From NCBI GenBank assembly GCA_007376385.1, contig VMGC01000004.1, positions 64,001-128,000 of the forward strand: a stretch of 64,000 bases of DNA. The letters run 5' to 3'. This DNA comes from Parcubacteria group bacterium Gr01-1014_8 (GTDB taxonomy: Bacteria > Patescibacteriota > Minisyncoccia > Phycocordibacterales > UBA2100). The notes under the pieces were generated by a model that did not search any database, had not been told where the DNA came from, and worked only from the letters and a program-made list of their open reading frames with translations. The position numbers and the translations under genes are program-made. This document shows positions 2,476 through 62,336 of the stretch, in pieces; within the stretch, counting starts at the first letter, position 1, and each line of letters starts with the position of its first letter.

Positions 2476-3702
2476 CTATATCTTCGCGGGAAGCGGTTTG
2501 TAGTTGATGACCTTATGTGGCAAACCATTTTTTGCAAGTGTCTTCAAGAACGGCTCCGGGTCCAATTGTTCGACGTTCCATACACCTGCCCCTGTCCAAA
2601 AACCTTTCATGACCATCATGGCTGCAATTACTGGCGGTACGCCCGCCGTATATGAGACTGCTTGAGAACCGACTTCGCGGAAGCATTTTGCGTGGTCGCA
2701 GACGTTATAAATGTATTTAGTACTTTCTTTGCCATTTTTTACGCCGGTCACGATACAACCGATGACAGCCTTGCCGCTGTACCCGGTTGCTAGCGATGCC
2801 GGGTCCGGGAGAAGTGCTTTCAAGAATTGAATTGGCACGATAGGTCTCCCTTCAAACATTACAGGGTCAATCCGACTGATGCCAATCGACTCCATGACGC
2901 GAAGATGCGTGAGGTAATTCTCGCCAAATGTCATCCAGAATCGCATTCGTTCAACAGAAGGGAAATGTTTGACAAGAGATTCCATTTCTTCGTGGTAGAG
3001 AAGATAGCTCTCCCTCTTTCCAGCAACAGGATAGTTGAAGGTGAAGTGGGTGCTTTTTGGGTCCATGATCGGGGGGCTCTTTACCCACTTTCCTTTGTTC
3101 CAATGTTTAACCTCTTGCGTAACCTCGCGAATGTTGATTTCTGGATTAAAATTCGTTGCAAATGATTTGCCGTGGCTTCCAGCATTTGCGTCGAGAATAT
3201 CAACGTACTTTATCTTGTCGAAATATTTCTTTGCGATATATGCGATGAAGGCGTTCGTAACTCCAGGGTCGAAGCCAGCGCCAAGAACCGCCATGATGCC
3301 CTTTTTCTTGTAGCGCGCCTGGTATGCCCATTGCCAGCTGTATTCAAAGTGAGCCTCATCGATAGGTTCGTAGTTCGCGGTGTCTATATAGTGGACTCCC
3401 GTTTCGAGGCATGCATCCATGATGGAAAGATCTTGGTAGGGAAGGGCGAGGTTGATGACGACCTCGGGATCTACTTTACGAATGAGCGCCGCTACATCTT
3501 TAGCTTTGTCAGCGTCTACAACATGGGTCTCAATGTCCACCCCCCAGCGTTTTTTTACATTCTTCTGGATTGCGTTCGGCTTTGCTATCGAACGGCTGGC
3601 GAGGTGTATTTTTTTGAATACGTCTTTATTTATTGCGCACTTGTGTGCGGCGACACTTCCGACCCCTCCGGCTCCAATGATGAGTACAGTTCCTTTAGCC
3701 AT
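2476..3702 (-). CDS. Carboxy(nor)spermidine dehydrogenase/synthase (saccharopine dehydrogenase family)
   Basis: N-terminal Rossmann motif 'MAKGTVLIIGAGGVGSVAAH' starts at the internal Met (rc ATG at 3700-3702). About 408 aa, saccharopine-dehydrogenase-like. It sits in the same cluster as the decarboxylase. Confidence 0.6.
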   Translation of the reverse strand: MAKGTVLIIGAGGVGSVAAHKCAINKDVFKKIHLASRSIAKPNAIQKNVKKRWGVDIETHVVDADKAKDVAALIRKVDPEVVINLALPYQDLSIMDACLETGVHYIDTANYEPIDEAHFEYSWQWAYQARYKKKGIMAVLGAGFDPGVTNAFIAYIAKKYFDKIKYVDILDANAGSHGKSFATNFNPEINIREVTQEVKHWNKGKWVKSPPIMDPKSTHFTFNYPVAGKRESYLLYHEEMESLVKHFPSVERMRFWMTFGENYLTHLRVMESIGISRIDPVMFEGRPIVPIQFLKALLPDPASLATGYSGKAVIGCIVTGVKNGKESTKYIYNVCDHAKCFREVGSQAVSYTAGVPPVIAAMMVMKGFWTGAGVWNVEQLDPEPFLKTLAKNGLPHKVINYKPLPAKI

Positions 3703-7599: not shown

Positions 7600-7629
7600 G
7601 ACACAGACTAGGCATATGTTCGGTACCGT

Positions 7630-7655
7630 CGCTGTCTGTCGCTGCTGCGACAGCG
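7630..7655 (+). terminator. GC-rich hairpin downstream of the speA-like stop (7-bp stem CGCTGTC/GACAGCG), no U-tract
   Basis: Seen in sequence at about 7630-7655. Weak evidence as a terminator because no T-run follows. Confidence 0.2.
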
Positions 7656-7790
7656 CTGACTCTCGATCCGGTCGGCCTGCGAGACACGGCACCGAACACA
7701 TGCCCACGCTCGTTAAGGGGTGAATACAAAATGCAAATTCCACAGACTCGCTTATGATATACTTCTCGCATTAGACAATAATTATTGTAT

Positions 7791-9127: not shown

Positions 9128-12081
9128 AAAGTTACGATCATAAACGTATAGAACGAAAGTGGCAGGCACGCTGGAAGAAATCGAAGCTGTACAAGACTGC
9201 CGATACGGTAAAAGGTAAGAAAAATTATTATTTGCTAACTGAATTTCCGTATCCGTCTGGCAATTTGCACGTCGGACACTGGTACGCTTTTTCTGTACCG
9301 GACATTTTAGCAAGAGCGCTCCGCATGCAAGGCAAGAATGTGATGTATCCGTTCGGCTTTGATGCATTCGGATTGCCTGCGGAAAACGCAGCCATAAAAA
9401 ATAAGTTGAATCCTCGAAAATGGACCCTCGGCAACATCAAGTACATGAAAAAACAGATAACCTCGATGGGTGCATCGTTTGATTGGTCTCGAGAACTCGC
9501 TACGTGCGATCCTGAATACTACAAGTGGACGCAGTGGCAGTTTTTGCAATTTTTTAAGGCAGGACTCGCATATCGAAAAGAGACAGCAGTCAATTGGTGC
9601 CCTTCGTGCAAGACAGTGCTTGCGAACGAGCAGGTAGTGGATGGAAAATGCGAACGATGCGGAACGGAAGTGATTCAGAAGCAAATGCTTCAATGGAACT
9701 TAAAAATCACCGACTATGCGGACCGTCTTATTGACGATTTGAGCACGCTGGATTGGCCTGAACAGATAAAGGAATCGCAGAAAAATTGGATAGGACGTTC
9801 TGAAGGCGCCGAGATAGATTTCAGGCTCACAGGAAATGTAGGCGATGACTCACGGTATCTGATCCTCCACGGCAGAGAAGGGAAGCCCACGAGCGTCTTT
9901 ATTCCATGGCTCAAAGAAGAACTGGAAAAAGCTGGACATGAAGTGGAAGTGCCACAGCTTCCCAACACGAATGAACCGAATGCATATGAACAGGCAGAAT
10001 ACATCCTCAAGAACTGCACCGTAGATGAAAAAACAGTTGTGATAGGCCACTCGATAGGAGGAGTTACAGCGCTGCGTCTCTTGGAGAAGGGCGCAAAGGT
10101 TAGGCGCGTTATATTGGTCGCGACACCGTACTCAGGAAGATTTTTGGATGGTAAGAAACGGCCGAGCGTCACAGATTCCGTGAAGAAGGGGTTCGATTTC
10201 GAGACGATACGGAACAATACAAAGAGCATCATTGTTATGCCGGATGTAAAAGATGACAGAGTTCCATTTTCCGACGCCGAGAGCTATGCGCAGAAACTGG
10301 CCGGGATGCTGGTCCATGGCAGGGGAGAGGAGAAGCATTTTATGGGTAAGATAGAGCCGGATGTATTGATGTGCCTTTGCCCCACTATCCGCGTTTTTAC
10401 GACGCGAGCCGACACGCTTTTCGGGGCGACCTACATGGTCTTGTCCCCGGAACATCCATGGGTACGGTTAGCGATAGATGATGATCACAAAGTTTTAGAA
10501 AATAAGGATGAGGTAAAGGAATACGTCACAGCGGCGAATAAAAAAACTGAGCTGGAACGCCTCACGGAACAAAAAGAAAAGACCGGGGTGAGGCTGAAAG
10601 GCGTTGAGGGAGTAAACCCCGCTACGGGCGAGAAGATACCGATATTCGTAGCAGACTACGTGCTTGCGCACTACGGGACAGGGGCCATCATGGCGGTCCC
10701 GGCGCACGATGAGCGCGACTTTGCATTTGCCAAGAAATTTGAGCTGCCGATACGAGATGTGATCTCTACTGGAAAGATGGAATCCGGCGTGTTCGCAGGA
10801 GAAGGAGTGTTGGTGAATTCCGGCGCGTTCAATGGGCTAAAAAGTATCGAGGCTAAGAGCACGCTCACCGATAAATTTGGCCGCAGTAAAATCACGTACA
10901 AACTCCGCGATTGGATAGTTTCGCGCCAGCGTTACTGGGGAGTTCCAATACCCATCGTCCACTGCGAAAGGTGTGGAGACGTCGCTATTCCTGATCCACA
11001 GCTTCCCGTTACATTGCCGGAAATCAAAGATTATTTGCCAACCGGAGACGGAAAATCGCCTCTCGCAAAAGCCAAAAAGTGGGTCAAAGTGAAATGTCCG
11101 CAGTGCAAAGGGACGGCAGAAAGAGAAACAGATACTCTCGATACGTTCGTCGATTCATCCTGGTACTTTTTGCGGTACGCGGACACAATAAACAAAAAAA
11201 AGTTTGCCGATATGAAAAAGATGGATGCATGGATGCCGGTAGATCTCTATTCCGGAGGAGCAGAACACACAACGATGCACCTCCTCTATTCTCGCTTCTG
11301 GCAGAAGGCGCTCTACGATCTAAAGCTCGTTAAGGACAGCGAGCCGTACACGCGAAGGATGAATCGTTCCATCATTCTTGGTCCAGACGGGCAAAAGATG
11401 TCGAAATCCCGAGGCAACGTGATAGACCCGGATGCTGTTGTCGCGAAACTCGGCGCAGACACCGTGCGTATGTACCTTGCCTTCATAGGTCCGTATAATG
11501 AGGTTTCGAACTATCCGTGGAATCCGGATGGTGTGGTAGGTATTCGCCGTTTTCTCGAGCGTGTTTGGCGCCTCCGCGACCGACTTACGATATCGGTCAA
11601 GAAAAGTGACGGACATACGATATCGAACATCGAACGGATGCTGCATGTAACGATTAAAAAGGTGGGGGACGATATCACTGCCCTGAAATTCAATACTGCC
11701 ATCGCGCAGATGATGTCGTTTATGAACGAAGCAGAGAGTAAAGGGATCACAAAGGCGCAATACGAGACACTGCTTCGGCTTCTTGCCCCGTTCGCTCCTC
11801 ATATTGCAGACGAACTTTGGAGCATGATGGGACACAAGAAGTCGGTTCATATTGAAAAATGGCCCGCATTCGATCCGCATAAACTCGCGTCGTCGTCGTT
11901 TACAATTGCGGTACAAGTGAATGGCAAGACACGAACTCAAATCACCATACCTGCTGCAGTGAAGGAAGACGCCGTGAAGGAACAGGCTGAAACAGCTGCA
12001 GGAAAATGGTTGGAGGGAAAGGCTATAAAAAAGATCATCTACGTGCCCGGCCGCATCGTCAACATCGTCGCGGGCGAATAG
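9124..12081 (+). CDS. leuS: Leucyl-tRNA synthetase carrying an inserted alpha/beta serine-hydrolase domain
   Basis: HIGH-type 'PYPSGNLHVGH', KMSKS 'QKMSKS', CP1 editing-domain landmarks 'VFTTRADT', 'GTGAIMAVPAHDERDFAFA' and 'RDWIVSRQRYWG'. Residues about 243-419 form an RBBP9/YdeN-like hydrolase (LILHG...VVIGHSIGG...). Total 985 aa. Confidence 0.9.
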   Translation: MKSYDHKRIERKWQARWKKSKLYKTADTVKGKKNYYLLTEFPYPSGNLHVGHWYAFSVPDILARALRMQGKNVMYPFGFDAFGLPAENAAIKNKLNPRKWTLGNIKYMKKQITSMGASFDWSRELATCDPEYYKWTQWQFLQFFKAGLAYRKETAVNWCPSCKTVLANEQVVDGKCERCGTEVIQKQMLQWNLKITDYADRLIDDLSTLDWPEQIKESQKNWIGRSEGAEIDFRLTGNVGDDSRYLILHGREGKPTSVFIPWLKEELEKAGHEVEVPQLPNTNEPNAYEQAEYILKNCTVDEKTVVIGHSIGGVTALRLLEKGAKVRRVILVATPYSGRFLDGKKRPSVTDSVKKGFDFETIRNNTKSIIVMPDVKDDRVPFSDAESYAQKLAGMLVHGRGEEKHFMGKIEPDVLMCLCPTIRVFTTRADTLFGATYMVLSPEHPWVRLAIDDDHKVLENKDEVKEYVTAANKKTELERLTEQKEKTGVRLKGVEGVNPATGEKIPIFVADYVLAHYGTGAIMAVPAHDERDFAFAKKFELPIRDVISTGKMESGVFAGEGVLVNSGAFNGLKSIEAKSTLTDKFGRSKITYKLRDWIVSRQRYWGVPIPIVHCERCGDVAIPDPQLPVTLPEIKDYLPTGDGKSPLAKAKKWVKVKCPQCKGTAERETDTLDTFVDSSWYFLRYADTINKKKFADMKKMDAWMPVDLYSGGAEHTTMHLLYSRFWQKALYDLKLVKDSEPYTRRMNRSIILGPDGQKMSKSRGNVIDPDAVVAKLGADTVRMYLAFIGPYNEVSNYPWNPDGVVGIRRFLERVWRLRDRLTISVKKSDGHTISNIERMLHVTIKKVGDDITALKFNTAIAQMMSFMNEAESKGITKAQYETLLRLLAPFAPHIADELWSMMGHKKSVHIEKWPAFDPHKLASSSFTIAVQVNGKTRTQITIPAAVKEDAVKEQAETAAGKWLEGKAIKKIIYVPGRIVNIVAGE

Positions 12082-15887: not shown

Positions 15888-15890
15888 CGT

Positions 15891-16032
15891 ATGCCCGCAC
15901 ACCAATGGTGGCATAATGTTTTTGTTGCAAATATACTATCTGACATGTATCCAGATTCGGAAACTCGTACTGCGACTACGGATAATATTCTGAAAACACG
16001 TGGCAACCATGCCACCATTGGTGTGCGGGTAT
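15891..16032 (+). repeat. 142-bp element bounded by a 24-bp near-perfect inverted repeat (ATGCCCGCACACCAATGGTGGCAT / ATGCCACCATTGGTGTGCGGGTAT); it encodes a 46-codon ORF whose TGA overlaps the rplI ATG
   Basis: Left arm 15891-15914 and right arm 16009-16032 match 23/24 as reverse complements. The internal ORF is [47 protein letters not shown]. Confidence 0.5.
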
Positions 16033-16480
16033 GAAGGTCATCATGCTTCGTGATGTCGCAGGTGTGGGACAAAAGGGAACCATAGCGCGCGTATCGGATG
16101 GCTATGCCATGAATTTTCTTATTCCTCAAAAATTTGCAGAAATGGCTACAGAAGAGAAGGTCAATGAGACGCATAAACGAAAAGCCGAAGCTGAAGCCAT
16201 GGTGGTGAAGCAGATGGCAGAATGGAAGGAGCAAGCAACACGGCTTGCTAATGCATCAGTGACAGTTCGCATGGAGGCAAATGAAAAGGGACAGCTGTAT
16301 AGTCAGATACCTCACGCCAAAATTCTTGAACGCATATCGAAGGAGCTCGGCATCAACGTTAAGGAGGAATGCCTGGTCGATGTAAGGCCGATAAAATCAC
16401 TCGGCCGTACTGAAATAGACCTTACGCTGGGCGGGAAACGGATCCCATTCACTGTTTTTGTGGAGAGAAAAGAGGATTAA
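16031..16480 (+). CDS. rplI: 50S ribosomal protein L9
   Basis: '[32 protein letters not shown]' matches the L9 N-domain consensus. Confidence 0.85.
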
Positions 16481-17163: not shown

Positions 17164-17190
17164 GAAACATAACGGGGGCAACTGTGCTTC

Positions 17191-17226
17191 GTACCATAAT
17201 GGTGCCGGTCGGCACCATTATGGTAC
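17191..17226. terminator. Perfect 16-bp-stem palindrome GTACCATAATGGTGCC-ggtc-GGCACCATTATGGTAC; likely an intergenic terminator/structural hairpin
   Basis: Seen in sequence 28 nt after the 16801-17163 stop. No clear U-tract follows. Confidence 0.35.
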
Positions 17227-17303
17227 GCATATAAATCAAAAGGAGACAGAAAATCCCCGAAACAAACACGACAGCTGGTATATCATGGGATATACTTATC
17301 GTC

Positions 17304-21318: not shown

Positions 21319-22650
21319 TTACGAAAGAGAAGCTATGGCTTTGCTGACGCGCCGCACTGTCTCATCCTTACCGAGGATCGAAGCAACAAGAAAAGGGTCC
21401 GGTGACTGTTCTTTGCCGGTAAGAGAGTATCGAAAAGGCCAAAGAACTGCTCCCCTTCCCTCTTTAGTGGCGTAGGGCCAAAGCGCATCTTTTATCGAGG
21501 ATACGTCGAATACATTCAACGCTTCAAGCAGAGTCTTGATATCCCTAAGATGCTCGGCAGTTTTTGCGGCGCTGATCTTCTTCATTGGAATGAGATGTGC
21601 CTCTACTGAGGGCTGAACGAAGAAATAGTCGTATTCGCCGTTCATTGATTGTTCGTGAATGTCGCTCCATACAGAAATTCGCTCGCGAACAAGCGGAATG
21701 ATCTTTTTTGCAATGGATTCGTTCCAGTTCAAATGCGTAAGTGAATTTTCAAGCCACGACAGAGCCTCTGATGCGAACGCACTATCTGATAGTTTCAACA
21801 TATATTCGCGATTGAACCATCGCAATTTCTCAACATCGAAGACTGCTCCGCTTTTGTGCAGATCTGATAGTTCGAATTCCTGTACCATCTCATCGAGCGA
21901 CAATACTTCCCTTCCTGACGGCGCAGTCCACCCCAGCGTCGCTAGGTAGTTCAAGAGCGCTTGGGGCAGATATCCCTTTTCCCTGTAATTCTTTACAGCA
22001 ACGTCGCCCTTTCGCTTGGATAATTTTGCCCGGTCGAGGCTCAGGTGCAGAGGATAATGGGCGTACATGGGTCTTTTCGCGCCGAGTGCTTCTTGAATGA
22101 GAATTTGACGCGGCGTATTAGATATATGGTCCTCCCCTCTGATAACGTGCGTAATTCCCATAGCCGCATCGTCAACCACGACGGCAAGATGATACAGCGG
22201 GTCGTCCTTGGAGCGAGCGATGACAAAGTCTTTAAGCTCCGTTGTGTCAAACGATATATCGCCGCGTATGACATCAGTAAACGTGATAGTTTTGCCGGAA
22301 TTCCGCAATCGAATAACGCTCACCATTGTACCGGGGTCCTTCTTACTCTCTTCGTCCGATACGTATGCTTTATCTTCATCAATAAGTTTTTCTATTTCAG
22401 CGCGATACACGTCGATCCTCTCGGATTGTCTATGAAATTCGTCCCATGAAAGCCCAAGCCACGTGAGCGAATCTTTGATGTCATCCTCGAATTCTCGGGT
22501 ACTTCGTTCTTTGTCCGTATCCTCTGAGCGAAAAATGATGGTGCCATTGTTTTTTCGCGCAAACAAATAATTCACGATGGCCATACGCGCAGTACCTACG
22601 TGGCAGAACCCGGTCGGGCTCGGCGGAAATCTAACCCGCACGGAATTCAT
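21319..22650 (-). CDS. gltX: Glutamyl-tRNA synthetase
   Basis: 'VRVRFPPSPTGFCHVGTAR' (HIGH) and 'KLSKRKG' (KMSKS). Confidence 0.85.
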   Translation of the reverse strand: MNSVRVRFPPSPTGFCHVGTARMAIVNYLFARKNNGTIIFRSEDTDKERSTREFEDDIKDSLTWLGLSWDEFHRQSERIDVYRAEIEKLIDEDKAYVSDEESKKDPGTMVSVIRLRNSGKTITFTDVIRGDISFDTTELKDFVIARSKDDPLYHLAVVVDDAAMGITHVIRGEDHISNTPRQILIQEALGAKRPMYAHYPLHLSLDRAKLSKRKGDVAVKNYREKGYLPQALLNYLATLGWTAPSGREVLSLDEMVQEFELSDLHKSGAVFDVEKLRWFNREYMLKLSDSAFASEALSWLENSLTHLNWNESIAKKIIPLVRERISVWSDIHEQSMNGEYDYFFVQPSVEAHLIPMKKISAAKTAEHLRDIKTLLEALNVFDVSSIKDALWPYATKEGRGAVLWPFRYSLTGKEQSPDPFLVASILGKDETVRRVSKAIASLS

Positions 22651-22754
22651 ACCCCGTGAGAGAGATTACGCGAGCTTATGCAACAAACTCTCGGGATATT
22701 GAATTGAATGAATAGTATTGTCATATCTATTATTTTTTCTCTCATGGGGTCATA
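22649..22754. repeat. Intercistronic palindromic element, copy D: arms ATACCCCGTGAGAGAGA / TCTCTCATGGGGTCAT lie exactly between the murG stop and the gltX start
   Basis: Left arm 22649-22665 overlaps the gltX ATG. Right arm 22737-22754 overlaps the murG stop. Same terminal consensus as copies A, B and C. Confidence 0.55.
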
Positions 22755-36727: not shown

Positions 36728-37813
36728 CTACAGGCCTTCAGCGCGCAAGTTCTCAATGAGAATTTTCGCGCTTTTCGAAAGTTTTTTCGGAAATTCAATA
36801 TTCACCCTAACCAATAGATCTCCTCGACTCCCTCGTCCTGATGGCACACCTTTTCCGCGTACTCGAATGAACTCTCCATGCGTAACGCCGGCAGGAACAG
36901 TGACCGTCGTCTCACCGTCCAGCGATTGTATCGTGTAGTCTCCGCCAAGCAGTGCGTCAGTAAGTTTTATCGGCAGCACCATAACGAGATTGCTCCCGTC
37001 GCGCGTAAATACTTTGTCTGCTTTTACGTGCAATTTCACATAGAGGTCTCCCGCTGATACTCCAGGAGCAGCCTCCCCCCTCCCCGGCATTCGTATCATC
37101 TCGCCATTTTCAACACCAGCAGGAACACTCACGCGGATCTCTTCCTCTCTCTTTGCTACGCCTTCGCCGTTGCATGCCGTGCATGGCTGATCCGGCACTT
37201 CCCGTCGGCCATGGCACTGCGGGCATGTCCTCACTGATGTAAACGAACCGAAAAACGAGTTGCGGCTTTCGTGTATCTGACCTTTGCCATTGCACATCGT
37301 ACACTCTGTCATCCGGGAACCCTTCTTGGCACCAGTACCAGTGCAGACGTCGCATGTTGTAACTTTTGAGATCAGAACTCGTCTCTCCGTCCCAAAGATA
37401 GCGTCTTTGAATGGTATTTCTATATCTATCGAGATGTCGCGGCCTCTTTTTTGCTTTCGGCCCGTAGCGCCGCCGAAAAATTCGCCAAAAATATCACCGA
37501 GGTCGAATTCAACTCCCTCTCCGCTGAAACCGCTTCCTCCTGCACCGGAAAATCCAGCAAATTTAGAGAAATCAAATCCGCCGAATCCTCCCGCGCCTCC
37601 GCCGCCTGAAAATGTCTTCCCGTACGCGTCATACTCTGCCCGTTTCTTCTTATCAGACAAGACGGCGTATGCCTCACTGACCTCCTTGAACTTCGCTTCG
37701 TCTCCGCCTTTTTTATCCGGATGAAATTTATGTGCAAGCGAGCGAAAGGCTTTTTTAATATCCTCCTCCGTCGCAGTTTTCTGTATACCCAATATTTGGT
37801 AGTAGTCTTTCAT
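36728..37813 (-). CDS. dnaJ: Chaperone DnaJ (type I: J domain, G/F region, four CxxCxGxG repeats)
   Basis: 'KDYYQILGI...HPDK', and 'CDVCTGTG', 'CTMCNGKG', 'CPQCHGRR', 'CTACNGEG'. The first ATG is at M4 of the track ORF, whose first codon is GTG. Confidence 0.85.
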
Positions 37814-37917
37814 ATGGATCACTTTAAGGAATATCTTTCGAAACTCCGTGCATTAGCGCTGGTAATACTTCGTTATCTCATGCGTACCTCCCGTACTCCA
37901 GAACCCTCTACATCGCA

Positions 37918-38023
37918 GTATACCCCATGAGATAATATCGCAACAAGTGCAACAATGCTGTTGATAATTTGATGCATTTCGAGTTTGATGTGTACGTGAT
38001 TCATTCTATCTCACGGGGTATAC
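37918..38023. repeat. Intercistronic palindromic element, copy A, between dnaK and dnaJ: arms GTATACCCCATGAGATA / TATCTCACGGGGTATAC with a 72-nt spacer
   Basis: Left arm 37918-37934 and right arm 38007-38023 are reverse complements apart from one A/G. Confidence 0.55.
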
Positions 38024-38108: not shown

Positions 38109-39965
38109 TCAATCTTTTTTTGGTTCTTGGCCATCCGCAGGAGGCGTCTCGCCGCCTTGGGCGGGACCCTTCGACATGGCTTCGCCGATGGCACTCATCG
38201 CGGCAGAAAGCGCATCTACTGCATTTTTTATGGCGACCGCATCATTCCCCGCTCTGGCCGTTTTTAGCGCATCTATCTTCTCCTGAACATTTTTCTTCAC
38301 ATCAGAACCGATCTTCTCTCCATGCTCGCGCAGAGCTTTCTCCGCGGCGTACACAAGTTGGTCAGCGGCGTTCTGTGCCTCCACCAATTCCTTCTTTTTC
38401 TTGTCAGACTCGGCGTTGGCATCAGCATCCGAGCGCATTTTTTCAACGTCCGCATCAGTTAATCCGGAACGCGCCTCTATCCGTATTGATTGCTCCTTAC
38501 CAGACGTTTTTTCCTTCGCTTTGACAGAGAGAATGCCGTTTGCATCTATATCGAAACTGACCTCGATTTGCGGCATGCCTCGTGGCGACGGCGGAATACC
38601 GTCCAGGTTGAACCGTCCCAAAGACTTATTGTCTGCAGCCATCGGTCTCTCGCCTTGTACGACATGTATCTCGACGGACGGTTGGTTGTCCGCCGCCGTC
38701 GAAAACACCTGCGATTTTGAAGTAGGAATAGTCGTGTTTCTTTCAATTAATTTTGTTGCAACCCCTCCGAGTGTCTCTATGCCGAAAGAAAGAGGTATGA
38801 CATCGAGAAGAAGCACATCCTTTACGTCGCCCTGCAAAATTCCTCCCTGGATAGCCGCACCGATGGCAACGACCTCGTCCGGGTTTACTCCCATGTGCGG
38901 CTTTTTTCCGAAAAAATCCTCAACTGCCTTTTGAAGCGCCGGCATTCGTGTTTGTCCTCCCACGAGAATAACTTCATTGATATCTCCTATTTTGAACGGC
39001 GAGGCTTCCATTGCGCGTTTTGTTATAGCAATAGCTCTATCAACAAATTCGCGAGAAAGGTCCTCAAGCTTCCCGCGCGTCATCTTAATAAGGAGATGCC
39101 GGGGGCCGGACGAATCCGACGTGATGAACGGAATATTGATCTCAGTTTCTAGCGCGCTTGAGAGTTCTATTTTGGCTTTCTCTGCACCTTCATCAAGTCG
39201 TTGCCGTGCCAAGGGATCATTACGAACATCAATGCCTGACTCTTTTTTGAATTCATCAGCTATCCAATTCATGATATTCTGGTCCAGATCTTTTCCTCCA
39301 AGATGGGCATCGCCATCGGTTGAACGGACTTCTATCACGTCGTCACCCACTTCCAGAACGGAGATGTCGAACGTGCCTCCGCCAAAGTCGAACACAACGA
39401 TTTTTTCGTTCTTTTTTTTGTTAAAACCATATGCTAAGGCAGCTGCAGTCGGTTCATTGATGATGCGCTTCACATCAAGTCCCGCTATCTTGCCCGCATC
39501 ACGCGTTGCCTGACGCTGTGAATCGTTGAAATATGCGGGAACGGTAATGACCGCTTCCGTGATCGTCTCGCCCAGCTTCGCTTCAGCGTCCTGTTTTAAC
39601 TTTTGCAGGATCATGGCAGAGATCTCCTCTGGCCGGTACCACTTAGAACCCATGTGCACCTCTATGCCGCCATTCGAGCTTTTCTGCATCTCAAAAGGCA
39701 CCGCTTTCCTATCCTTTTCTACTGCAGCTTCGTCGAACGAGTGTCCGATGAAGCGCTTTATTTGATAAATTGTGTTTTTCGGATTCGTAACCGCTTGTCT
39801 TTTTGCAAGAAGTCCGACAAGCCGCTCCCCTGTCTTTGAGGTGGCGACAACGGACGGCGTCGTCCGAGCGCCCTCAGCATTTTCTATGATGTCAGGCTCG
39901 CCTCCTTTCACTATTGCAATCGCTGAATTCGTCGTTCCAAGATCTATGCCGAGTATTTTTCCCAT
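38109..39965 (-). CDS. dnaK: Chaperone DnaK (Hsp70)
   Basis: '[13 protein letters not shown]', 'DLGGGTFD' and '[11 protein letters not shown]' Hsp70 signatures, 618 aa. Confidence 0.9.
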
Positions 39966-40015: not shown

Positions 40016-40824
40016 TTGTGCAAGTCAGACTTGCACAAACATGACATATTTATGAGCTGTCGTCAAAATCCATTGCCAAACGGACAAATTCATTGTCAAA
40101 CGCATACACACCATTTAATACGTCCTTTGCTGAATTTAAGAATTTCCGTTCGTCGGTTTCAACGACCTCATCAAGAGCGTCGTAGTCGAGTATCTGGGAT
40201 CGCCGCGAGCCTAGAACGTCTATAAGGCTCGCGAATGGATATGCTCGTGCCTGCTGTAATGCCTCATCGTATTTCTGAAAAGCACTATCTAAGCCGCCGG
40301 GGAATCTCTCGAACGGATTTTTGACGGTAATGTATGCAAGTAAATATTGCAGATATTCATCATCATGGACGGTGCGAGCTTTGTACGAACTCTGAAACAG
40401 AGTTCCCTCTTCGCTGTACTTGGCGTTGAAATATGCTGCCATACTCGTGCATAGTCTCTGCATAAAAGCGCTGATACCATTTTCTACGTTCTCGCGTACG
40501 AGCAAATGGAAGTGATTATCCATAAGACAGAACGCTAAGATTGACACGTATGGCTTTTGCTTTCGCCAATGTTCAGGACGTGAAAATCCGGCACGAATAT
40601 TGTCTGGGCCGATATCGCGCTCCCAATTCCGCGGCGTGTTGTCGTCGTTTAGGTAACGTAGGAGTTTAAGAAATCGCCACCGGTCGTCATCGTCTCGGAT
40701 TATGCTCATGCCGCGTGTACCTCTCTTCATTACATGCACGTACGAGCCGACGGAATACGGTTCTCTTCTCATACTTGACAGATTACATTATTCTTCTGCA
40801 CTTGTGCAAGTCAGACTTGCACAA
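40016..40824 (-). mobile_element. IS200/IS605- or RAYT-like element: Y1 (HUH) transposase flanked by two direct copies of a 23-bp hairpin TTGTGCAAGTCAGACTTGCACAA
   Basis: Hairpins at 40016-40038 and 40802-40824 have 11-bp palindromic arms, and each is followed by CATGAC. The insertion splits grpE from dnaK. Confidence 0.6.
40050..40772 (-). CDS. HUH-Y1 single-strand transposase (IS200/IS605 TnpA / REP-associated tyrosine transposase-like)
   Basis: 'YVHVMKRG...RWRFLKLL' parallels the N-terminal beta-strands of TnpA. 'FCLMDNHFHLLV' is the HUH motif, and 'GTLFQSSYKART' carries the candidate catalytic Tyr. Confidence 0.55.
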   Translation of the reverse strand: MRREPYSVGSYVHVMKRGTRGMSIIRDDDDRWRFLKLLRYLNDDNTPRNWERDIGPDNIRAGFSRPEHWRKQKPYVSILAFCLMDNHFHLLVRENVENGISAFMQRLCTSMAAYFNAKYSEEGTLFQSSYKARTVHDDEYLQYLLAYITVKNPFERFPGGLDSAFQKYDEALQQARAYPFASLIDVLGSRRSQILDYDALDEVVETDERKFLNSAKDVLNGVYAFDNEFVRLAMDFDDSS

Positions 40825-40842
40825 CGCATGACTTTTCCAGTT

Positions 40843-43941: not shown

Positions 43942-44130
43942 AAAAAAATGGCGCGTTAGGCGAAAGGAGGCTTAAAATCTGGATAAAAAAGCGATTAATA
44001 AAAGATACGAAAAACGCGAAACAGTATACCCCAACATAATGCTGTTGGCAATATTTACGTCCGTGGATAAGTTATGTTCATAAAGCTCGTTGGCATATGT
44101 AAAGGTAGGAATATATTCAAGATATACATT

Positions 44131-54285: not shown

Positions 54286-54540
54286 CTAGATACGGGCTCC
54301 TTCACCCCTCAATAGAGCACGCTTACGTCTCTCTCCGCCGCGGTTATAATTGCCTAAGCTACCGTCAGAACGAACTACTCTGTGACACGGAATAGTCGGG
54401 TCATAGTTCGTCCGCATAATCGCGCCGACTCCTCGCGCCGCTTTGGAATTTCCCGCCTTTGTAGCAACCTGTTTATAGGTCATAGAACCCCCCTTTGGGA
54501 TCGTGCGTACGATATCGAGGACTTTCTCACGAAACGTCAT
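54286..54540 (-). CDS. Methylated-DNA-protein-cysteine methyltransferase (Ogt/MGMT) active-site domain protein
   Basis: '...YKQVATKAGNSKAARGVGAIMRTN...IPCHRVV' with the PCHRV catalytic Cys motif. Start at MTFREK (rc ATG 54538-54540). Confidence 0.65.
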   Translation of the reverse strand: MTFREKVLDIVRTIPKGGSMTYKQVATKAGNSKAARGVGAIMRTNYDPTIPCHRVVRSDGSLGNYNRGGERRKRALLRGEGARI

Positions 54541-54548
54541 GCACGCAT

Positions 54549-54654
54549 TATACCCCATGAGATAGATCTCAAGATATGCATTCTGAATCAAATCATTCGC
54601 AGACGGATTTCTAAAACATCAAGTCAGAGAATGTATCTCACGGGGTTATATACC
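54549..54654. repeat. Intercistronic palindromic element, copy B: arms TATACCCCATGAGATA / TATCTCACGGGGTTATATACC with a 69-nt spacer
   Basis: Arms at 54549-54564 and 54634-54654. The right arm overlaps the stop of the Cas4-like gene. Confidence 0.55.
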
Positions 54655-55443
54655 CAGAGTACCCTGAACTTTCTTCGAGTTTTTGGGCGCAAATGCGAGC
54701 ATTTTTTTGCCGACTGCTTCTCGATATCGGCAATAGTCGCACTCTTCTGATGCAGATGGCAACTCATCACGTTCCAGACACAATTTTATTTCTTTGAGCG
54801 TTCCTTCGACCCACGAATCGTCACCTTTATAAGGGACGAGAGTTACCTCGAACTCCAGCAGAGCATCAAATGCCTTTTTGTCCCTATCCGCGTTCGCATA
54901 CACGAAGTACCCAGTGTCAGAGACCTTGAATCCGTTCTGCCTAAAGAGCCACTGGTATATTTCCATTTGCCGTTTGTATCCATCGTGCCACTCTTGGTCC
55001 AATTCTTTTATCGTTTCGTCTTTACTCGTCGCCTTGTAATCAACGATGATAAGTTCGCCCTTTGGATCTATCCATATGTCATCCACGCCGCCGCACACCA
55101 TGAATCCTGTGCTGTGGCGATGGCAGATACCCCGCTTCAATGAGTCACGCCATTCATCTATGCGCGAGTCATCGAACGGAACCGCATCAACACCGTATTC
55201 TTTCAAGAGCGGATGCGTTGTCTTTTCTGTCCGATGAATATCGAATTCCTTTTTTAACAGCGCATCAACTGCACTATTCAGATTGAACGGAAAGCCCGGC
55301 GGACGAGCTGTCCCAAGCTTGTTATCAATATAAAAACACCTGGGGCACTCAAGAAAAAGCCCTATTTTCGAGCGAGAAAGACGGAACCTATCTCCGCCAT
55401 AGTTCCAATTTGGATTTCTGTCTGGCTTGTAGTAGCCGCTCAT
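54646..55443 (-). CDS. PD-(D/E)xK nuclease with a four-Cys cluster (Cas4-like/RecB-family Fe-S nuclease); no CRISPR context
   Basis: N-terminal 'CPRCFY', 'GGVDDIWIDPKGELIIVDYKATS' (D...EYK/DYK motif), 'YKRQMEIYQWL' (QxxxY) and C-terminal 'CDYCRY'. Confidence 0.6.
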   Translation of the reverse strand: MSGYYKPDRNPNWNYGGDRFRLSRSKIGLFLECPRCFYIDNKLGTARPPGFPFNLNSAVDALLKKEFDIHRTEKTTHPLLKEYGVDAVPFDDSRIDEWRDSLKRGICHRHSTGFMVCGGVDDIWIDPKGELIIVDYKATSKDETIKELDQEWHDGYKRQMEIYQWLFRQNGFKVSDTGYFVYANADRDKKAFDALLEFEVTLVPYKGDDSWVEGTLKEIKLCLERDELPSASEECDYCRYREAVGKKMLAFAPKNSKKVQGTLGI

Positions 55444-55450
55444 GGGACGA

Positions 55451-55521
55451 GTATACCCCGTGAGATCAAGAAATCTAAATATTTCGAACGACGTATGGGA
55501 ACTTATCTCACGGAATATACC
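55451..55521. repeat. Intercistronic palindromic element, copy C: arms GTATACCCCGTGAGAT / TTATCTCACGGAATATACC with a 36-nt spacer
   Basis: Arms at 55451-55466 and 55503-55521, immediately upstream of the Cas4-like gene start. Confidence 0.5.
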
Positions 55522-55657
55522 ACCGCCTCTGTCTGGAACATCGCCTCTGATATTCAGGTTGGAGAATATCGGAGGCGATGCATTTTTTTGCGTCGACGGA
55601 GCCGACTAACTTCCAGCAAGCCGACCCAGGTGCCCTCGTGTTAGCGAAGGATCGGCT

Positions 55658-62170: not shown

Positions 62171-62264
62171 GTTTTTGGTTTTTGAACCATTTGACGGAAC
62201 AAACTGGTTATGGCGTATGTTTTATCAGAATCTGAGAGGTGTGTCAATTTATTACTTGCGCAGA

Positions 62265-62336
62265 ATACCCCGTAGCTCTGCTGCGGGGATAAATGCGCAA
62301 GAGCGGAGGGGGTCGGGGAACCGCGTTCGGTTCCCC
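62265..62336. promoter_or_regulatory. Two adjacent hairpins in the dnaB upstream (divergent) region: ATACCCCGTAGCTCTGCTGCGGGGATA and GGGGAACCGcgttCGGTTCCCC
   Basis: The first (62265-62291) looks like a spacer-less relative of the ATACCCCRTGAGA element. The second (62315-62336) is a perfect 9-bp-stem palindrome 15 nt upstream of the dnaB ATG. Confidence 0.3.

Follow-up and report, generated by a model that had tools for sequence, protein, structure and literature searches.

The stretch analysed here (hereafter the window) comprises 64,000 nucleotides of contig VMGC01000004.1, positions 64,001 to 128,000, in the assembly GCA_007376385.1 of Parcubacteria group bacterium Gr01-1014_8, the genome of a Kaiserbacteria-like bacterium of the candidate phyla radiation (CPR), with which the DnaJ and GltX proteins of the window agree at 100% identity. 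It holds four short palindrome-ended elements, A to D, all of which are located between minus-strand genes; a Pfam check of the neighbours identified murG, gltX, dnaJ, a gene for a PD-(D/E)XK nuclease and one for an ogt-like DNA-binding protein. A direct reading of the sequence found paired arms in each of the four copies, at the places given in a preliminary description of this DNA. The core of each copy was refined by defining it as CCCC...GGGG, with the following result:

Copy A, 37919..38022: core 37923-38018 (96 nt), both arms perfect, TATA at 37919-37922 and again at 38019-38022.
Copy B, 54548..54650: core 54553-54645 (93 nt), TTATA at 54548-54552 and 54646-54650 (TATAA on the coding strand).
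Copy C, 55452..55519: core 55456-55515 (60 nt, short size class), TATA at 55452-55455 and 55516-55519.
Copy D, 22647..22754: core 22652-22749 (98 nt), TCATA at 22647-22651 and 22750-22754 (TATGA on the coding strand).

Copy A occupies part of the gap that extends from the dnaK stop at 38109 to the dnaJ start at 37813. Copy B touches the PD-(D/E)XK stop codon, and 11 nt separate it from the ATG of the ogt-like gene, which corresponds to 54286-54540 and not to the 101-aa open reading frame (ORF) of the mechanical ORF list; copy C lies 11 nt ahead of the PD-(D/E)XK ATG, and copy D adjoins the murG stop on one side and the gltX ATG on the other. The terminal inverted repeats are 12 nt long, CCCCRTGAGATA and TATCTCAYGGGG, and are exact or nearly so in A, B and D, the arms of D being a GAGAGA variant (CCCCRTGAGAGA); in C the gene-distal arm is degenerate (TATATTCCGTGAGATA), with GGAA replacing GGGG. 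When the arm ATACCCCRTGAGA was searched with up to 2 mismatches, 11 matches were obtained against 1.85 expected, a number reached in none of 100 shuffled sequences, and 8 of the 11 were arms of the four pairs; the paired-arm pattern gave 3 exact matches in the window against 0.00 expected. Thus, the four clear copies of the preliminary description hold up well beyond chance, and they lie, as it says, between genes of the same strand. Two degenerate relatives that it had proposed do not. The first, ‘copy E’ (44024-44075), was rejected because it is the rpoA promoter, TTGCCA-N17-TATACT with GGGG ahead of it, which is conserved in a related genome (L116; loci of other genomes carry L numbers) where no arm is present; the second, a ‘mini copy’ (62255-62301), is a separate hairpin with a 22-nt stem that has only ATACCCCG in common with the elements.

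To define the family outside the window, we carried out two scans. The first, on one genome per species, used the pattern ACCCCRTGAGA-N50-80-TCTCAYGGGGT, by which the flanking A and T are fixed, and returned at least 111 loci with arm pairs in Saccharibacteria, Parcubacteria/Kaiserbacteria, Planctomycetota, Verrucomicrobiota, KSB1, Nitrospirota, Bacteroidota and other hosts. The second, independent scan was run on metagenomes with CCCCRTGAGATA-N50-80-TATCTCAYGGGG, leaving the flanks free. At least 230 loci, belonging to CPR, Planctomycetota, Verrucomicrobiota, Bacteroidota and further phyla, were found to share these arms; viral contigs gave just 2 matches. Over 128 copies the conserved part consists of T-N-N-A followed by CCCCRTGAGATA and, after the interior, of TATCTCAYGGGG followed by T-N-N-A. 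The interior has practically zero information content across these copies and no conserved positions, and the comparison of spacers suggested earlier did not yield a common core; when interiors were folded and compared with shuffled controls, no excess structure was observed (median z ~0). The core length has a sharp peak at ~95 nt, with minor classes at ~30-41, 58-62, 176 and 278-298 nt, and a 3-nt periodicity, as for in-frame insertion, was not seen. An interior hypervariability of the kind produced by diversity-generating retroelements or CRISPR arrays was considered and dropped, the flanking genes at the compared orthologous sites being just 65-85% identical, because of which neutral sites are saturated.

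The arms vary at their central purine/pyrimidine pair, which was GT in 46 copies, AC in 43, GC in 38 and AT in 1 in the genome set, and GC in 52, GT in 38, AC in 33 and AT in 1 in the metagenome set. The simplest reading is that two end configurations, G/G and G/A, are inherited, and not that the same mutation recurred; CpG deamination as origin of the G/A asymmetry was rejected, since the complementary variant CCCTG never occurs. A sister subfamily with the arms CCCCGTTAGAGA and TCTCTAACGGGG was also noticed (L062 7864-7983, L090 6774-7049, L053 6030-6088, L056 5550-5643 and L075 4344-4422); one of its copies has a duplication that is not of the T..A type, CGAA, and the L090 copy carries a divergent GIY-YIG gene. 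On a phage contig with tail genes (L118, 2210-6472), at least 5 copies are present in 13 kb, with minimal versions of ~40 nt every ~500 nt; neither a transposase nor a GIY-YIG ORF was detected among its large ORFs.

Several lines of evidence indicate that the elements are insertions. Beside ACCCC/GGGGT, the flanking dinucleotides of the 128 copies are non-palindromic direct repeats in 31 and AT/AT (that is, TATA) in 36, and are inverted in 10 only; examples from CPR-type copies are TAGA/TAGA, TACA/TACA and TGTA/TGTA. As the flanks are direct repeats, the idea that they are covarying stem pairs with GT/GT wobbles was rejected. In the metagenome scan, with its free flanks, an exact 4-nt direct repeat was found in 46 of 124 copies, against 11.2 when the flanks were re-paired at random, and T-N-N-A was still dominant. 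The duplication is now and then 5 nt instead of 4, and in the window it is TATA for A and C, TATAA for B and TATGA for D. Moreover, the site of D is empty in L120 (Kaiserbacteria genome GCA_016217965.1), where the murG TAA is followed by 17 nt and the gltX ATG; removing copy D and one TATGA in silico leaves ...CCG CTA TGA ATT CC..., in which the murG stop overlaps the gltX start (ATGA). Another site is filled in L077 and L110 and empty in L086. The same interior recurs at separate loci of one genome, in either orientation (L005/L022/L062, and two copies each in L049 and L111), and tandem copies are spaced by exactly one 4-mer, as would follow if a regenerated target were hit once more. The element is therefore an insertion that adds itself plus 4-5 bp of duplicated target, usually T-N-N-A, and that spreads within genomes. 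As short, non-coding sequences with terminal inverted repeats, a target duplication and presence or absence at orthologous sites, the window copies behave as miniature transposable elements with inverted repeats (MITEs), which the preliminary description had named as an alternative and which the empty site, the same-interior copies and the tandems support.

The reading that it had placed first, a likeness to repetitive extragenic palindromes or bacterial interspersed mosaic elements (REP/BIME), loses its ground with these data: no arm is palindromic by itself, conservation of the arms extends over several phyla and is not confined to one species, the flanking bases repeat directly, and the interior lacks excess structure. 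A palindromic unit, a link to a RAYT gene and restriction to one species define REP, BIME and REPIN sequences, and none of the three applies here. An integron attC site was likewise rejected, the core RYYYAAC ... GTTRRRY being absent from the arms and the interior not extending the hairpin.

One candidate for a mobilising enzyme in the window is encoded by a Y1_Tnp gene (40050-40772), a HUH (Y1) transposase that might move the elements as REPIN-like hairpins; the single G/A asymmetry of the arms would then mark one strand of the DNA hairpin. This gene, IS200-like or RAYT-like, encodes 240 aa; its neighbours are grpE and dnaK, its hairpins are located near 40020-40045 and 40805-40830, and it is missing from the grpE-dnaK position in L113 and L116. 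It is flanked on both sides by a hairpin of its own, GTGCAAGTC-TGA-CTTGCAC, and on this point the earlier remark that the local RAYT-like gene has a different hairpin was correct. A single arm of our elements is not a hairpin, only one weak Y1 homologue was found in the 111 element-bearing loci, and the elements have target duplications, which HUH transposition does not make. The suggested likeness to hairpins recognised by HUH enzymes is thus not sustained, and we give almost no credence to mobilisation by this transposase.

A different enzyme is found between the arms themselves. The 278-298 bp class comprises eight copies, seven of which align once oriented and derive from both CPR-type and Planctomycetota/Verrucomicrobiota-type contexts, while the interior of the eighth (L130) is unrelated. 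Between their arms the seven conserve a single ORF of 79-92 aa (typically ~87), for instance MAKYYYVYVLRSLGDHQFYVGLTRDIPARLQVHNEGLVASTKNRVPFELVYWEGYLNQSDAALREKYLKSAWGKRYIKTRLRRYLTG, which matches the GIY-YIG domain PF01541 with E values from 3e-14 to 5e-17, above the curated cut-off. The alignment has invariant columns of Tyr, Tyr-x-Gly, Arg, His and Glu, which we take to be the catalytic residues of GIY-YIG enzymes. Differences among these ORFs fall mostly at third codon positions (e.g. 13/14/47 at positions 1/2/3), and more codon changes are synonymous than non-synonymous; the ORF is under purifying selection. Many copies have the arm itself (TATCTCACGGGG) as their final codons, Y-L-T-G, with the flank providing the TAA or TGA that comes next, which accounts for the conservation of TRAA and TTYA in the non-CPR type.

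About 24 GIY-YIG ORFs were present in 231 loci that had been fetched only for short elements, at least 10 of them with arms at both ends and several others 5-40 nt from a short copy; when loci were fetched through the protein alone (four proteins), arms were present at 6 of 6 independent places. Remnants of the ORF were recognised in short copies, namely the C-terminal ~25 codons in L126 (E 3e-10), the N-terminal ~20 codons in L149 (E 3e-6) and a weak match in L185. No other protein family was enriched near the elements among neighbour ORFs of at least 80 aa, a cut-off that also missed the GIY-YIG genes, which are at or just above that length. Between the arms, no gene other than that of a conserved GIY-YIG nuclease was ever found. 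A profile search with this protein recovered, among 8000 candidates scored, at least 7978 database cluster representatives of 85-92 aa at E<=1e-10, named only ‘GIY-YIG nuclease family protein’ or ‘putative endonuclease’. Among solved structures, the UPF0213 proteins 1zg2 (E 3e-10) and 1ywl (E 6e-8) come nearest, followed with weaker scores by SLX1, and by these similarities the nuclease is assigned to the UPF0213/Slx1 branch.

In several loci the 280-bp element was observed to interrupt tyrosine recombinase (integron-integrase-like) genes at fixed motifs, LRLRV/KDVDF, LLGHS/KDVSTTMIYTHV and RHS/FATHLL. The cases are L244, L246 and L247 around 2982-3261, L248 at 853-1132, and also L150, L224, L242 and L131; cutting out 280+4 nt restores a single recombinase ORF of 367-448 aa in L244, L246 and L247, the contig of L248 being too short.

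On the other hand, the elements could be conventional MITEs derived from a DDE transposon, such as one like IS1380 or piggyBac, with the GIY-YIG ORF as a passenger or a separate parasite between the same ends. Terminal repeats that open with CCC(C) and a 4-5 bp duplication at T-N-N-A agree with this: in the IS1380 family and piggyBac, CC(C) opens the ends and 4-5 bp are duplicated, piggyBac ends read CCCTAGAAAGATA with TTAA as target, and piggyBac excision is precise. A second family in the window (15890-16033) likewise has CCC ends and a 4-bp duplication. The likeness to IS1380 and piggyBac concerns ends and duplication, and no DDE transposase with these arms was found in the loci examined. 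In ~1.7 Mb around more than 370 copies neither a transposase nor a long element with such ends was found; the GIY-YIG gene is the sole ORF seen between arms, and it recurs in different phyla, is under purifying selection and in many copies has its last codons (YLTG) formed by the arm. A 2.1-kb ‘autonomous element’ in L058 was rejected, being a chance match that lay within a VirB4-like gene; further arm pairs, spaced 1.1-3.6 kb and inspected by eye, held no plausible transposase candidate, and arm pairs 95-368 nt apart held no ORF of 100 aa or more. Because none was met around so many copies, an unseen DDE transposase was rated lower than the GIY-YIG reading, and we regard it as unlikely.

We propose instead that copies A-D are non-autonomous, MITE-like members of a family of palindrome-ended GIY-YIG mini-elements, a reading to which we assign a probability of about 75%. 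The nuclease, supplied in trans, would mobilise both ORF-less copies and itself, and may recognise the arms or the stem that they form. One could imagine a staggered 4-nt cut at the T-N-N-A on either side of the element and at that of the target, with host enzymes doing the joining; such a scheme would regenerate T-N-N-A on both sides, permit precise excision and favour the self-complementary TATA.

Several points weigh against this proposal. GIY-YIG nucleases cut DNA and are not known to integrate it, and the combination of terminal repeats with a target duplication is classically that of DDE transposases. No GIY-YIG ORF is present within the 64-kb window. Of the short interiors, 242 out of 245 have no similarity to the GIY-YIG ORF, because of which descent by internal deletion is demonstrated for few copies only. 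The discrete length classes (~60, 95 and 280) have no explanation under the model, nor do the missing A/A ends. Planctomycetota/Verrucomicrobiota-type copies have inverted flanks (TTYA...TRAA) and no direct duplication; the inserted DNA is likewise the element plus 4 nt, and the model does not account for the transition mismatches of these flanks. Finally, where orthologous sites of diverged genomes are both occupied, the arms are perfect, the orientation is shared and the length is near-equal, but the interiors cannot be aligned. Such a pattern calls for selection on the arms or, alternatively, for insertion time and again at one site. In the latter case, a new insertion beside an existing copy, followed by the loss of one tandem partner, would replace the interior and leave the flanks untouched; tandem copies, the intermediates of such a replacement, are observed. 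At the site of copy C, the L019 homologue of the PD-(D/E)XK gene has a 98-nt copy with an unrelated interior at an equal offset (ATG 11 nt after GGGGT).

The exact fit of the copies into gene junctions can be followed at the nucleotide level. In copy B the upstream duplicate holds the TAA stop of the PD-(D/E)XK gene (54646-54648) and the downstream one re-forms TATAAT (54552-54547); in copy D one duplicate holds the murG TGA stop (22750-22752) and the other the gltX ATG (22650-22648). The persisting copies are those whose duplication rebuilds the signal that was split, be it the upstream stop codon, the downstream start codon or a TAnnnT box, and the junction fit results from this rebuilding together with selection against other insertions in a spacer-poor genome.

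Other repeats were observed at such junctions. The second inverted-repeat family mentioned above (15890-16033) has the arms CCCGCACACCAATGGTGGCAT, with one G/T-type mismatch between them, a core of 136 nt with CCC ends and the 4-bp duplication TATG, whose downstream copy provides the rplI ATG (16031); it fills the gap between the S41-peptidase gene and rplI, a gap that is empty in L120. In L121, also Kaiserbacteria-like, a third and unrelated inverted-repeat element rich in GTATCAAGT motifs (2431-2556 and 11686-11818) sits at both the murG-gltX and the rplI-S41 junctions. Gene junctions are recurrent landing sites of several element families. A copy of ~95 nt inside a gene was noted in L008 (822-917, a Verrucomicrobiota metagenome-assembled genome, with a paralogous copy in L059), where an RHS/YD-repeat ORF is read through it without a stop, the arms being translated as HPVRY ... 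LSHRV. The window also holds a perfect 18-nt palindrome, CGTACCATAATGGTGCCG, at 17190-17227, 19-nt inverted arms 56 nt apart at 7611-7704, and a hairpin at 55539-55580 with a 17-bp stem and a T-run, terminator-like on the + strand, between mgtC and copy C.

The position of the element ends suggests that they may act as promoters. The signals predicted in the window are the following:

54538..54552, minus strand: predicted promoter of a leaderless mRNA of the ogt-like gene, TATAAT (54552-54547), six bases and ATG (54540-54538), derived from the target duplicate after the terminal GGGG.
55441..55455, minus strand: predicted promoter of a leaderless mRNA of the PD-(D/E)XK gene, TATACT (55455-55450), six bases and ATG (55443-55441), at the end of copy C.
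37917..37922, minus strand: predicted dnaJ -10 box, TATACT directly after the GGGG of copy A.

A consensus promoter scan at the end of copy C returned TTTAGA-18-TATACT. Among 96 arms that face the start of a long ORF within 60 nt, 36 starts lie 12-14 nt past GGGG, 22 of them at exactly 12, with other offsets occurring about once each; the six bases past GGGG are TAnnnT in 31 of 37 cases at offsets 12-15 (TATACT 16, TATAGT 4, TACACT 3, TATAAT 3, and others). Such spacing would match a -10 box whose +1 falls on the first base of the ATG, i.e. a leaderless mRNA, and the terminal GGGG with the duplicated TAnnnT would represent an outward-facing promoter that puts +1 on the downstream ATG. In the window as a whole, TAnnnT-N5-7 precedes 14 of 59 ORF starts, against 3% of all ATG trinucleotides, and a Shine-Dalgarno-like motif is present at only 6 of the 59; these start contexts suggest that initiation is mostly leaderless or Shine-Dalgarno-independent. 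At the element-free rpoA promoter, GGGG is directly ahead of TATACT in the window and in L116, and therefore the terminal GGGG imitates a native upstream context.

For dnaJ the start is ~100 nt downstream of TATACT, which predicts an mRNA with a leader. Here GGGGTATACTG is kept in L116, L117 and L113, and the dnaJ-proximal arm is conserved in the relatives together with the adjacent half of the interior (-35-like TTGTTG); the distal arm is decayed in L113 and lost in L116. This conservation pattern is what exaptation of one end of copy A as a promoter would give. A palindrome, CAACAGCATT(A)TGTTG, was seen both in copy A upstream of the dnaJ promoter (37945-37965) and in the spacer of the rpoA promoter (44045-44062); it is not conserved in L116 and may be a shared operator.

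A further possibility is that the elements serve the host at the RNA level, as processing sites, stabilisers or insulators of the REP/BIME kind, with a 16-18 bp stem whose arms are under host selection. In favour of this, the sense RNAs fold into a terminal stem with z from -2.7 to -4.1, the arms, orientation and length are kept at orthologous sites whose interiors are saturated with changes, and the placement is strictly intercistronic. Since the arms are invariant they cannot show covariation, and at their sole variable position the sense RNA would have a G.U pair in 28 copies and an A.C mismatch in 27, independently of the direction in which the genes are transcribed. The interior is unstructured beyond chance, the flanks are direct repeats and not complementary, and no T-run terminator follows the stem. 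At site A it is the distal arm that decays in relatives and only the promoter-proximal one that is kept, and in L121 unrelated MITE families occupy the same junctions. No Rfam match reached the gathering score in the window, and in five element-rich loci searched at E<=1 just tRNA and chance-level matches appeared. Taken together, an RNA function as the reason for these elements seems to us very improbable.

Returning to the proposed GIY-YIG mini-elements, their short copies have much in common with known bacterial MITEs (Correia, RUP, ERIC), being short, non-coding, multicopy and intergenic, with inverted repeats and a target duplication, and MITEs too can act as promoters or RNA stems. They differ in having arms that are near-invariant across several phyla, interiors that are mostly unrelated between copies and still fall in sharp length classes, and coding relatives that carry only a GIY-YIG nuclease and no IS-family transposase. 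The full-length elements resemble the phage homing endonuclease genes of the Seg/Mob type and I-TevI, which have a GIY-YIG domain, are selfish and lie between or inside conserved genes; insertion at fixed conserved motifs of tyrosine recombinase genes is suggestive of homing. By contrast, the protein described here has ~87 aa, lacks a DNA-binding extension and belongs to the UPF0213/Slx1 branch, and its gene is bounded by inverted repeats and has ORF-less derivatives. Simple homing by gene conversion yields no target duplications, whereas these copies are found with duplications at many non-homologous sites. The closest solved sequence relatives of the nuclease are the UPF0213/YhbQ-type proteins and SLX1; the latter cuts branched and stem-loop DNA, which fits recognition of a stem made by the arms, and in the literature on these proteins we found no report of mobility or of flanking inverted repeats. 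The L008 copy recalls the Rickettsia palindromic elements, which are short, palindromic and can lie in frame within protein genes; the sequences are unrelated, and in the window and in CPR genomes our elements are generally intergenic.

A literature search, with most subscription journals outside its scope, returned no description of inverted-repeat-bounded GIY-YIG mini-elements or of MITEs in CPR bacteria, a 2006 survey of the GIY-YIG superfamily contains nothing on such mini-elements, and an exact-sequence search produced chance primer matches only. In a stronger form of the proposal, the ~280-bp members would rank as the smallest known autonomous DNA transposons, an 87-residue stand-alone nuclease and 12-nt repeats being sufficient with host repair or ligation for excision and insertion by a 4-nt staggered cut, and would drive the ~95-bp copies in trans across CPR, Planctomycetota, Verrucomicrobiota, Bacteroidota and phages, with the element ends serving routinely as promoters of leaderless genes in CPR. 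We advance this only tentatively, as a possibility with the odds somewhat against it.

The structure of the elements is otherwise MITE-like, and it is the coding partner, a GIY-YIG nuclease, that makes them unusual. If our reading is true, the elements would matter for the annotation of CPR genomes, where they shift the ends of ORFs and mark likely transcription starts, and their conserved arms would be a handy marker for horizontal spread between phyla. An Slx1/UPF0213-branch GIY-YIG nuclease would then join the known transposition enzymes as a type of its own, the many ~87-aa ‘putative endonucleases’ of this very large family would acquire a role, and mobile DNA would be seen to survive in the most compact bacterial genomes by means of stops, starts and -10 boxes rebuilt by its own duplication.

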